Positions 55,866 through 58,283 of a stretch of DNA of 64,000 nucleotides are shown here, piece after piece. Every line of letters starts with the position of its first letter. The stretch's first letter is position 1. Made by a program: the position numbers and the translations under genes. This DNA is from Terriglobia bacterium (GTDB lineage: Bacteria; Acidobacteriota; Terriglobia; JAJPHL01; JAPKYU01): the NCBI GenBank assembly GCA_965223005.1, contig CBDCVK010000010.1, positions 1,184,001 through 1,248,000 of the forward strand, written 5' to 3'. The notes below the pieces were generated by a model. The model saw only the letters and a list, made by a program, of their open reading frames with translations, searched no databases and was not told where the DNA came from.

Positions 55866-56015
55866 AGCATCGAGTCACCGGGCGAGTTCTTGCGGTTCTT
55901 ATGCGACGATGAAGACGCCGAGGTGATGGCCATCGGGCGAGACTGCCGCTGCTTGCCACCGCAAGAGGGCACCGAAGTTCCGGACACGAATCCATTAGAA
56001 GGAGAGCCTGCAAGA

Positions 56016-57725
56016 ATGACCCCACGTCCCTTTATTGTCGCGATAATCGCCCTGGCGGTGCTTCTTGTTACGACCGCGCGCACCACGCCTCTACCGCCAG
56101 CAAAAGCCGACCTCGTCGATCTTACGCTTCTGGTGGCGGCAGACCACCCGGGCACTTGGCCTAAGAACGATTGGCCGCTTTTCCAGATGTCTCATTACCT
56201 TCGTATTGGCCCCAAAAGCCCTTATAACAGTGACGTTTTGCTCCTCGAGGGGAATGTCGGCACGCAACTCGACACGCCGCCGCACTCGATTCCCATGCCT
56301 GGTTCCGGCCTCCCGAACGCCGGGCCGGCTGGCCTCCTGTTCGCGGAAAGCGTCCCACCGTGGCAGTTTGTCGGAGAGGCCTGTGTGATCAACGTTACCC
56401 ACCTGCGGGACCGCGCCGCCAAGGGGCACAGCCCCTTGATCCAAACCAGCGACATCCAGGCATGGGAGAAAAAGCACCGTCCGCTGGGACCAGGCGACGT
56501 GGTGATCTTCGCCAGCGGATATAGCGATGCCTACTACCTTCCCCTGCCCGAGGGCAGGCGGTTTATCGCCGATCCGCTGGAAGGGCGTACGCCCGCCTGG
56601 CCTGACCCCACTCCCGAGGCTATGGAATACGTGGCCAAGCGGGGCGTGATGGCGGCGGCCACCGACAGCCCGAGCATGGGTCCGATTCCCGACTATGCCG
56701 ACCCAACGCATACGGCCGGGCTGAAGTATGGAATGATCTGGACCGAAGGGGGAACTGGATTCGGACAACTGCCGCCGACAGGGGCCTTGTATGGCGTGCT
56801 CTCTCCGAAATACGTGGGCGCCATGGCCACCGAGTCGCGCGCCTTGGCGGTCATCGGCTCGCCCCTGGCGGGGCAGTTGATTGAGTCAGCCCGCAAGAAG
56901 AGGGTCGTGGATCTTTCGGTGATGCTTGCCGACAACCTGCCCTTGTGGTGGCCCGGAACCGGATTCGGCAATCATCGCCAGCGCCTCCTGACGGTGCGGC
57001 ATGCCTATGATCCGAAAACGGAGGCCTCCCACATGGTGCACATCATGGACGCCCACACCGGCACTCATCTTGTGCCGCCGGTCTACTCTTTACCGCCCCC
57101 CGGCTTCTCCAACAGCAGTTACTCGCCCAAGGTGCAACGTTGGCTTGCCGAATACGAAAAACAGTTTGGTCCTCGCGGCACCAGTGAGGTGACCGTGGAA
57201 AAGGTGCCCGTCTCGCAGACCAGCGGGTGGCTTCGGGTCATTGATGTGCGAGGGCTGGCCGGCTCCTCGGACCGCAGCAAGTGGCCTGCGTCTCCCGAAA
57301 TCCGGTCCGCACACGTGGCTGAGTATGAGAAAAAGAATGGGGCGCTGCAACCGGGCGAGATCGTGGTCTTTCAGACCGGTCACAGCCAGCGTTGCGTACC
57401 GTCGGAAAAGGACCCGAAGGCCACCGGCTGCCTTGACGATCCCATCAACGGCCGTATCGAGGGCTGGCCAGCGCCTGGGCCGGAAGTCATCGTCTATTTG
57501 GCCGGCAAGGGGATCCGGGCCGTTGGCATTGATGCGCCCACGCTCGGAGGCGTGGAGCCCCGTCGCGCGCTGATGACCTACTGGGCACTAGGCAGCAAGG
57601 ACATGGCTGGCATTGAGTACCTGACCAATCTTGAACAGCTTCCTGGGAAAGCGTATCTGCTATTTGCCGCGATTAAGGTTCGCGACGCCCACGGCTCGCC
57701 CGGCCGGGCCCTCGCCCTCTACTAG
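56016..57725 (+). CDS. Exported tandem cyclase-family (kynurenine formamidase-like) protein
   Basis: GAAGGAG RBS, signal peptide; two repeats of VDL.., GT.., VI.V, PG..V.F..G, WP.P, D.P, G.PxR. Confidence 0.8.
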   Translation: MTPRPFIVAIIALAVLLVTTARTTPLPPAKADLVDLTLLVAADHPGTWPKNDWPLFQMSHYLRIGPKSPYNSDVLLLEGNVGTQLDTPPHSIPMPGSGLPNAGPAGLLFAESVPPWQFVGEACVINVTHLRDRAAKGHSPLIQTSDIQAWEKKHRPLGPGDVVIFASGYSDAYYLPLPEGRRFIADPLEGRTPAWPDPTPEAMEYVAKRGVMAAATDSPSMGPIPDYADPTHTAGLKYGMIWTEGGTGFGQLPPTGALYGVLSPKYVGAMATESRALAVIGSPLAGQLIESARKKRVVDLSVMLADNLPLWWPGTGFGNHRQRLLTVRHAYDPKTEASHMVHIMDAHTGTHLVPPVYSLPPPGFSNSSYSPKVQRWLAEYEKQFGPRGTSEVTVEKVPVSQTSGWLRVIDVRGLAGSSDRSKWPASPEIRSAHVAEYEKKNGALQPGEIVVFQTGHSQRCVPSEKDPKATGCLDDPINGRIEGWPAPGPEVIVYLAGKGIRAVGIDAPTLGGVEPRRALMTYWALGSKDMAGIEYLTNLEQLPGKAYLLFAAIKVRDAHGSPGRALALY

Positions 57726-57875
57726 GTTACGTAGAGCCATGACTTTACGGCAAGGCATGAGTCGCCAAGTCTGCCCCAGGCCCGGGGCTCTGATGAGATT
57801 GCGGTTGCCGTTGCATTAATTCGGTGCTAGGTTGCCAGCGGGGTTTCGATCACTGTTCTCCGTGGGAGGTTTACA

Positions 57876-58238
57876 ATGCCTAAGACTCTGGTCACGGGTA
57901 TCCATGGCGTCGAAGATCCGACCAAAGCGGGATTGGTCTTCGTTGTCGCCAAGGGGGCCAAGGAGGCCGGGCATGAAGTTGCCATTGCTTTGGTGGGCGA
58001 TGGCGTGATTGTCATGAAATCTGCCGTGCGCGATAGCATCGTGCCGGTTGGGCTGCCGCCTCTGAAAGAGCTGTTCGCCTTTGCTGTGGGCAACAAAATT
58101 CCCGTATTTGTTTGAGGCCTTTGCGGGAAGGCCCGTGGGGTCTCCGAAGAAGATTTCCAGGGGATCAATGCCTCTTGGATGGATCCTAAACGTTACGCCC
58201 AGCTGGTTGCGGAACACGACCGCGTTGTGAGTTTTTGA
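57876..58238 (+). CDS. DsrE/DsrF-family protein, probable selenoprotein (Sec encoded by TGA 58113-58115)
   Basis: GGAGG RBS; EDPTKA, GHEV..AL.GDGV; the frame stays open after TGA as U-GLCGKARGVSEEDF...HDRVVSF*, completing a 120-aa DsrE fold. Confidence 0.8.
58126..58145 (+). promoter_or_regulatory. Candidate bacterial SECIS element
   Basis: GGA-A-GGCCC-GTG-GGGTC-TCC hairpin; apical loop starts with GT, 19 nt after the TGA. Confidence 0.55.
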
Positions 58239-58283
58239 TACGGGAGGTTCTCGGTGTGCGGCAGCAGCCGGCCCGAACGTCTA

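Follow-up and report, generated by a model that had tools for sequence, protein, structure and literature searches.

A 64,000-nt stretch of DNA from a Terriglobia bacterium (GenBank assembly GCA_965223005.1, contig CBDCVK010000010.1, positions 1,184,001 to 1,248,000; hereafter the window, with coordinates counted from its first base) carries on its forward strand, at 57876-58238, what appears to be a single gene for a DsrE-like selenoprotein, in which the in-frame UGA at 58113-58115 is decoded as selenocysteine (Sec, U). We put the probability of this reading at about 0.93. The comparisons described below support the view that this is a real selenoprotein gene, of a kind that standard gene callers truncate.

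The frame opens with the ATG at 57876-57878, and under translation table 11 it halts after 79 codons at the TGA at 58113-58115 (ORF 57876-58115). The same frame stays open for 40 further codons, to a second TGA at 58236-58238, and the read-through product has 120 amino acids, with the sequence U-G-L-C at residues 80-83. An earlier note on this DNA had pointed out the short open reading frame (ORF), its continuation and the position of the motif, all with correct coordinates and translation. The Pfam DsrE profile (PF02635) matches residues 10-120 at 54.4 bits (cut-off 22.7), along positions 9-116 of its 116; in the scan of the genome the match scores 45.4 bits with one TGA inside it. As the match spans the TGA, the segment beyond it is part of the domain. 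Between the window gene and 94 distinct homologues, the ratio of nonsynonymous to synonymous differences (pN/pS) comes to 0.45 over codons 1-79 and to 0.53 over codons 81-120, against 1.24 and 1.31 for the downstream bases read in the other two frames; pS is close to saturation, and these figures are contrasts, not true dN/dS values. Judged from these substitution patterns, purifying selection acts on the 40 codons past the TGA, and does so in this frame alone.

Related loci were gathered by a pattern search starting from N-terminal motifs, and hence without bias towards TGA: 37 from species genomes and 80 from metagenomes, 117 in total. Column 80 is TGA in 112 of them and a Cys codon in four (C-E-P-S in three, C-T-P-C in one); the last is truncated. 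The motif is TGA..TGY (UxxC) in 108 loci and TGA..TGA (UxxU) in four. Codon 83 is TGC or TGT in 106 of the 110 TGA-bearing loci where it was read, and TGA in the other four; two additional TGA loci have Cys at residue 83 according to their translation. By record title, the TGA-bearing genome loci belong to Acidobacteria/Terriglobia, Delta- and Betaproteobacteria, Eisenbacteria, Udaeobacter, Myxococcota, Streptomycetaceae, Planctomycetota, Rhodospirillaceae, Thermomicrobiales, Gemmatimonadota and Neomarinimicrobiota, and the TGA-bearing related loci span more than 10 phyla; the closest named record is a Terriglobia metagenome-assembled genome, at 95% identity. Where both ends could be set, 85 of 101 genes are exactly 120 codons long. 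Five of 41 related genomes, including the window's own, have the gene with one in-frame TGA, at the identical column in all five; among 201 sampled genomes of the same class the TGA form was found in 12, including the unpublished genome G077 (for one locus, L162 in G102, the codon is known from a “1 TGA” flag alone). Cys occupies column 80 in the proteins P0024 and P0026 and in loci L155-L159. The earlier note had asked whether homologues carry Cys or TGA at this residue and whether they conserve what follows: the 40 downstream residues are conserved, and Cys is found at column 80 in the more distant homologues.

Protein databases give a different picture of the same family. A collection of 5.8 billion proteins returned 24 matches. 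Nineteen of these have lengths of 76-82 residues and align to no more than the first 64-66% of the query; with P0021, which is extended at its N terminus and likewise ends at the TGA site, 20 stop there. In the five of these 20 that were read in sequence, the last residue is always the one before column 80. The four full-length proteins comprise two distant ones with C-G-A-C (Cys at column 80), one with Gly and one with Arg. A profile search of 1.84 billion cluster representatives found 1894 proteins with E <= 0.001, of which 599 have E <= 1e-10. When the best 150 representatives were aligned to the profile, 34 ended at profile positions 77-79 and 17 more within two residues of these, 51 in all that are cut at the Sec codon; 54 have CxxC, 15 have SxxS, and a few have Arg, Gly, Trp or some other residue at column 80. 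The early ends bear out the earlier expectation that annotation pipelines truncate the gene, and they are also what would be expected if the TGA were a true stop, leaving a 79-residue truncated protein or a pseudogene with 40 untranslated codons downstream. On that account, however, the Pfam domain would not cross the TGA, the downstream codons would not show purifying selection confined to one frame, and the stop at codon 121 would not be so widely kept. Retention of TGA across phyla is unlike a decaying gene, and the confidently predicted fold (below) needs the C-terminal strands and helices. Termination at this codon is extremely unlikely.

Contigs of four public sequencing runs, from four studies, cover 58113-58115 and show no other letter there; one of the four runs may be the source sample. 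One RNA-library contig is identical to the window over 57911-58201. A second, from a strain about 96% identical, has 20 differences and a 9-nt deletion elsewhere, none of them in 58113-58145. The earlier note had named a sequencing error, with TGC or TGT in the raw reads, as something that would undo its proposal; neither codon was seen at the site. A sequencing or assembly error for one of these Cys codons would have to recur at the same column in 112 independent loci and in the strain just mentioned, and nothing was found in its favor; its probability is negligible.

A nucleotide-level signal lies directly after the TGA. At four- and six-fold degenerate codons along most of the gene, the synonymous-site entropy of 95 distinct genes amounts to 1.5-2.3 bits; just past the TGA it collapses, to 0 at Ala86, 0.39 at Gly88 and 0.89 at Arg87. 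GCC is the Ala86 codon in all of 83 sequences, GGG the Gly88 codon in 94% and CGT the Arg87 codon in 81%. Of eight windows placed along the gene, codons 81-95 also rank lowest in mean folding energy (-17.45 kcal/mol; -9.3 to -13.5 for the others) and in mean z relative to synonymous recoding (-1.23, against +0.09 to -0.34).

In the window sequence this region can form a hairpin, GGG(AA)GGCCC, loop GUG, GGGUC-UCC, with a lower stem pairing 58125-58127 with 58143-58145, an AA bulge at 58128-58129, an upper stem pairing 58130-58134 with 58138-58142, and the loop at 58135-58137, starting 19 nt after the UGA. Three named structures were tested on an ungapped alignment of 84 sequences (83 distinct). 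For the 58125-58145 hairpin, 76.1% of cells are paired, more than for any of its three-column slides in either direction, and the covariation score is 0.152 against 0.092 in shuffles, none of 500 of which reach it. The pair 18-30, which links two third-codon positions, occurs as GC in 44 sequences, CG in 16, AU in two, UA in one and GU in one. A competing hairpin, which the earlier note had placed right after the UGA, is present in the window sequence and is not conserved: 55.1% of its cells are paired among the 83 distinct sequences, slid controls do better, and its 5' arm GGCC reads AGAC in the same-genus loci L026 and L032.

A register-free definition was also applied, calling for an uninterrupted stem of at least five pairs with at least three G-C, a loop of 3-8 nt with G in one of its first two places, and a loop start 14-26 nt after the UGA. 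Such a hairpin is present in 82 of the 84 Sec forms, in 61 of them with a GUG or GGG loop exactly 19 nt after the UGA, which agrees with the G-first loop and spacing proposed in the earlier note; when the sequences are recoded synonymously, following the codon usage of the upstream parts of these genes, it is found in 24.6 +/- 3.9 of 84 (maximum 33 in 100 rounds). Subfamilies with C-A-R-G-R-G-I or C-C-R-G-R-G-V have the hairpin in a shifted register. Only one of nine Cys forms has it, in contrast to two of two Sec forms of the same signal-peptide-bearing subfamily, and Cys forms that retain the residues A-R-G-V spell them with different codons. The sequences in these statistics are related to one another; within that limit, the comparison indicates that a hairpin with a G-first 3-nt loop 19 nt past the UGA is kept by selection at the nucleotide level, in Sec forms only.

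The general model of a bacterial selenocysteine insertion sequence (SECIS) element, in the available text of its description, places a stem-loop just after the UGA and a G in its small apical loop (PMC1088965). The hairpin is like that model in following the UGA directly and in its 3-nt loop starting with G; it differs in that its core, GCC CGU GGG GU, hardly varies in sequence over many phyla, owing to its overlap with the conserved Ala-Arg-Gly-Val codons, and in matching no Rfam family. In two sequencing runs (X2 and X6), contigs with unlike flanks, from other community members, match the window only over 58113-58154, and depth in run X6 peaks at 122.6 over 58122-58159, against about 24. These independent data thus identify the stretch after the UGA as the most conserved DNA of the gene family.

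The genome (10 contigs, 3.24 Mb; completeness 96% with the standard code) has the means to decode such a signal, as the earlier note would require. Its tRNA-Sec scores 78.5 bits and is reported by ARAGORN as tRNA-SeC with anticodon tca, and selA (551 bits), selB (341 bits) and selD (357 bits, with an in-frame TGA of its own) are all above their cut-offs. Behind the UGA of selD lies a 7-bp hairpin with loop GGU, the same design as in the DsrE-like gene. If decoding follows the Sec pathway general to bacteria, a complex of SelB, GTP and Sec-tRNA(Sec) would bind the mRNA hairpin and deliver Sec to a ribosome with the UGA in its A site.

Co-occurrence of gene and machinery can be followed in the same class. 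Eleven of the 12 genomes with the TGA form have selA, and the twelfth is only 62% complete. More telling is the contrast within one family, in which selA is found in 9 of 28 genomes: two genomes without a selA match (G174 and G100) read TGT at the site, and one selA-positive genome has TGA and the hairpin.

Two other genes of the same genome also have in-frame TGA codons, on the same contig (G000:C10). One, at L149:1486-3444 on the forward strand, encodes a formate-dehydrogenase-like (FdhA-like) molybdopterin enzyme of 652 codons with one TGA, in S-C-N-R-T-U-H-A-P-S. The other, at L149:762-1277 on the reverse strand, some 135 kb downstream of the window, is an ORF of the AhpC/TSA family (63 bits to Pfam) with its TGA in W-U-P-F-C; from its sequence it is probably a peroxiredoxin-like selenoprotein that gene callers would truncate as well. 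The two adjoin each other on opposite strands.

Could the UGA be read as another residue, Cys, Trp, Gly or Arg, by near-cognate decoding or a changed genetic code? Such an explanation would draw on the 8 full-length proteins among the best 150 representatives (P0003, P0008, P0028 and five others) in which column 80 is Trp (2), Gly (3) or Arg (3); the three such clusters that were checked contain 2-3 members each, of several origins. A single base change turns TGA into a codon for any of these residues, and the proteins may either be natural mutants or stem from gene calling with a different genetic code. Against this explanation are the gene's own terminal stop, which is TGA, the completeness of the genome under the standard code, the complete Sec machinery, the retention of the hairpin only where the codon is TGA, and the replacement by Cys in homologues, as in other selenoprotein families. 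We consider it very unlikely.

These same Gly, Arg and Trp proteins have to be counted against decoding as Sec, along with several other observations. The support for Sec at codon 80 is comparative throughout. The class-wide association with selA is a weak signal, since selA is above cut-off in 162 of the 201 genomes. Contigs from two RNA libraries bridge the TGA, and they are no proof of transcription because DNA may be present in RNA libraries. In the hairpin, 19 of the 83 sequences are unpaired at 18-30 in the gapless register, and the four innermost pairs of the upper stem are almost invariant and hence uninformative on pairing. The minimum-energy fold of the window sequence alone (ViennaRNA) is a different hairpin, with loop AAGG, and its z-score relative to dinucleotide shuffles is only -1.53; across the family this alternative fold has 68.3% of its cells paired, with covariation not above that of shuffles. 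RNAalifold gave no consensus structure for the 84 ungapped sequences, probably as a result of register shifts in the lower stem between subfamilies. A search of the whole window against Rfam found nothing at the gathering threshold, and a permissive scan of 58080-58240 returned only sub-threshold matches at chance level, with no SECIS family among them.

The coordinates of the gene and its features are collected in Table 1. The tandem repeat varies in copy number among strains: the same-genus loci L026 and L032 have 9 nt (one copy) more, and a contig from run X17 has 9 nt less. For the terminator-like stem the evidence is weak.

Table 1. Features of the DsrE-like gene in the window.
Feature	Position	Strand	Basis
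Shine-Dalgarno-like GGGAGG	57864..57869	+	6 nt before ATG, read from the sequence
Complete coding sequence, predicted DsrE-like selenoprotein, 120 codons plus terminal TGA	57876..58238	+	Translation with TGA as U
9-nt in-frame tandem repeat inside the gene, 2.3 copies, encoding Ala-Lys-Gly/Glu	57948..57968	+	Tandem Repeats Finder
In-frame TGA, predicted selenocysteine codon 80	58113..58115	+	Column conservation, Cys alignment, independent runs
TGC, Cys83, second residue of UxxC	58122..58124	+	Codon counts across TGA-bearing loci
SECIS-type hairpin	58125..58145	+	Pair counts, covariation, synonymous entropy, hairpin definition
Terminator-like stem (weak) and subsequent T run; overlaps the true stop codon	58215..58229	+	Consensus scan, 2 sites against 1.1 expected

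The AlphaFold2 model of the 120-residue product, made with a 41-row alignment, has a mean predicted local distance difference test score (pLDDT) of 97.5 and a predicted template modeling score (pTM) of 0.90, with a strand at 77-80 and a helix at 81-86; in this model U80 ends the strand and C83 is in the first turn of the following helix. The best solved structures found by Foldseek all have the DsrE fold: DsrE (2hy5_A), 3pnx, YchN (1jx7), 3mc3 (template modeling, TM, scores 0.82/0.81) and TusD (2d1p_A), with Swol_2425 and others also among them. A single-sequence search of solved structures gave only chance matches; with a profile, the sequences of 3mc3 (E 1.4e-9) and YchN (E 0.0013) were found, and U80 was aligned to their Cys. 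In the profile alignment C-K-T-C of YchN falls on U-G-L-C, and U80 falls on Cys78 of DsrE 2hy5_A, although that match is weak (E 0.62). The U80/C83 site is thus at the position of the active-site Cys of DsrE and TusD and of the CxxC of YchN. The earlier note had treated a “V.VC..C...RG” motif as general to DsrE and TusD proteins, which overstates the case: DsrE 2hy5_A has the first Cys only, and it is YchN that has CxxC.

DsrE (2hy5) and TusD (2d1p) have the same fold (Foldseek E 6.9e-7 and 1.4e-5, TM 0.70-0.75), but the second Cys three residues on is absent from DsrE, and the nucleophile here would be Sec, not Cys. Closer in overall form are YchN of E. coli (1jx7) and the Sulfolobus solfataricus protein 3mc3, both single-domain, stand-alone proteins of about 117-134 residues. 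YchN aligns as C-K-T-C...RG with U-G-L-C...RG and has in common a C-terminal ending of the type D-K-V-x-T-F; 3mc3 is the best sequence match among solved structures and has the best mutual TM. Both have Cys instead of Sec, 3mc3 is without the second Cys, and neither explains a mechanism. The DsrE-like domain at the C terminus of YedF (TIGR03527) has a CGXC redox motif, here U-G-x-C, and in the portions of the source available YedF is a candidate selenium-metabolism protein (PMC5322559); YedF differs in having an N-terminal SirA/TusA-like domain in addition.

Several more specific identities were considered and set aside. The protein is not a peroxiredoxin of the AhpC/TSA, thioredoxin-fold type: there is no AhpC-TSA or Redoxin Pfam match at E <= 1, and the fold is DsrE-like; “predicted peroxiredoxin,” given for P0024 in one source, is a mere label. 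It is not YedF, being a single 120-residue domain with no TIGR03527 match at E <= 1. Nor does it appear to be a subunit of DsrEFH or TusBCD, for which partners were not found: the gene is the only PF02635 match in the genome, so that a second gene of the DsrF/TusC type is lacking, and neither TusA (PF01206) nor YedF was found in this 96% complete genome; DsrH (PF04077) was not searched for. In the NCBIfam release searched, only models for TusC gave any match; they reach 13.8 and 11.8 bits, where 94.15 and 79 would be required, and no model specific for the family came up.

The surroundings of the gene name no partner either. Across 31 loci, two ORFs on each side (118 ORFs) include no conserved neighbor. 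The only recurrent one, adjoining the gene in four of the 31 loci, from different phyla, is an S-adenosylmethionine-dependent methyltransferase (Methyltransf_11/25/31, UbiE-like; L034:472-753, L048:3067-3735, L053:1050-1886 and L060:3178-3789). In the window, the upstream neighbor (55890-57725, forward strand, 150 nt away) encodes a 611-residue protein with two Putative-cyclase (PF04199) domains; this pairing is kept in the same-genus locus L032 and in none of the other 30. The downstream neighbor is a convergent transporter of the major facilitator superfamily, and neither flanking gene is conserved beyond the genus.

Taken together, the protein is probably a cytoplasmic, 120-residue, stand-alone protein of the DsrE fold. 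Since there is no other PF02635 gene, TusA, YedF or recurrent partner, it would act alone or as a homo-oligomer, the latter state being suggested by its relatives. For its chemistry, a redox cycle may be proposed in which the U80 selenolate would attack an oxidized sulfur, disulfide or peroxide substrate, Cys83 would resolve the adduct as an intramolecular selenenyl-sulfide, and cellular thiols would re-reduce it. We give this U80/Cys83 chemistry about an even chance; it would make the protein a UxxC redox protein, acting alone or as a homo-oligomer, and not a subunit of a DsrEFH/TusBCD relay.

With Sec decoded in just the same way, the protein could instead be a carrier, in which U80 would be loaded with sulfane sulfur or selenium, forming a selenenyl-persulfide or perselenide, and would pass the load on, as Cys78 of DsrE/TusD does. 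The alignment of U80 with DsrE Cys78 fits such a role, as does the structural similarity, with DsrE of DsrEFH the top match and TusD another, and a link to selenium metabolism like the one suggested for YedF's CGxC DsrE-like domain would also be in keeping with it. The missing TusA, second PF02635 gene and YedF, the TusC scores far below cut-off and the lack of any sulfur-oxidation or tRNA-thiolation genes conserved alongside in the 31 loci all point away from it; a second Cys that is kept strictly, three residues further on, would be more usual for a resolving Cys. Carriage of sulfane sulfur or selenium is possible, without being the expected outcome, and we think the UxxC redox cycle somewhat the more likely of the two.

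The relationship of Sec, Cys and other forms was surveyed with a quick tree of 97 rows (the window gene, 34 Sec forms and 62 full-length representatives, truncated proteins left out). The tree is weak, with 120 columns and 48 of 94 inner branches open, and no direction of change was drawn from it. The window gene is in a well-supported clade of 10 rows (nine Sec, one Arg), within a group of 32 rows of which 29 are Sec. The Sec label changes at least three times on well-supported branches, and phyla are mixed inside clades. A separate, well-supported clade of SxxS proteins (14 in the tree) has Ser at both motif positions, in S-G-M-S-S-K-A-R-G, and some members have signal-peptide-like N-termini; to judge by these residues the redox pair has been lost, and the proteins must have another function.

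At the other extreme are the UxxU forms, which come from four metagenome contigs with three distinct sequences (L144:449-460, L146:277-288, L147:1738-1749 and L148:1622-1633). They read U-G-G/L-U, and the downstream frame is intact to the end typical of the family. They also retain the hairpin, an A-U pair of one variant being G-C in another, and its loop is only about 10 nt past the second UGA. In the literature found by a full-text search for “UxxU” and “DsrE,” the parts available do not give UxxU for a DsrE-like family. These double-TGA forms and the near-invariant SECIS core across phyla are the most novel by-products of the analysis, both outside the window.

The family itself is not new, as the earlier note had rightly said. 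According to the portions of these papers available, a “DsrE-like protein” (Pfam02635, UXXC) was one of 15 selenoprotein families found in Sargasso Sea data in 2005 by Zhang, Fomenko and Gladyshev, with a predicted SECIS element figured (PMC1088965); a DsrE-like selenoprotein was listed for Desulfovibrio vulgaris in 2006, together with three selenoprotein families in Acidobacteria (PMC1794560); the 2008 Global Ocean Sampling survey distinguished “DsrE 2” (pfam02635, UxxC, 19 sequences) and “DsrE 1” (PMC2398784); and reviews of 2022 and 2026 describe the family as UxxC with one Sec and of uncharacterized function (PMC9312934, PMC13188914). As far as those descriptions extend, the window gene is like the published family in its PF02635 domain, Sec-first UxxC, single Sec, SECIS-like stem-loop with an apical G, and Cys homologues; the comparison is by published description, not by alignment to reference sequences, and this member is from an uncultured acidobacterium. 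That the gene belongs to a selenoprotein family published in 2005 will not surprise a specialist.

A speculative suggestion, which we would not favor at present, is that the Sec-form clade is a widespread soil and groundwater selenoprotein with no DsrEFH/TusA partner, and that it has a new, self-contained selenol activity (for example in reducing or detoxifying reactive sulfur, selenium or a metalloid), moved between phyla with its near-invariant SECIS core and in some lineages upgraded to UxxU.

For the organism, the gene would add one more selenoprotein to the Sec-containing SelD and the FdhA-like and peroxiredoxin-like Sec candidates, and the 79-residue gene call would be wrong. For annotation, the family is cut systematically at the Sec codon: 20 of the 24 close database proteins end there, as do about a third of the best 150 representatives. 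A dedicated profile combined with the conserved hairpin would rescue the truncated genes. Members of the family are common among bacteria of soil and groundwater, in many phyla, and the short conserved SECIS core, with natural Sec, Cys and double-Sec variants, would make the family a convenient system for studying what Sec contributes to a DsrE-fold active site.

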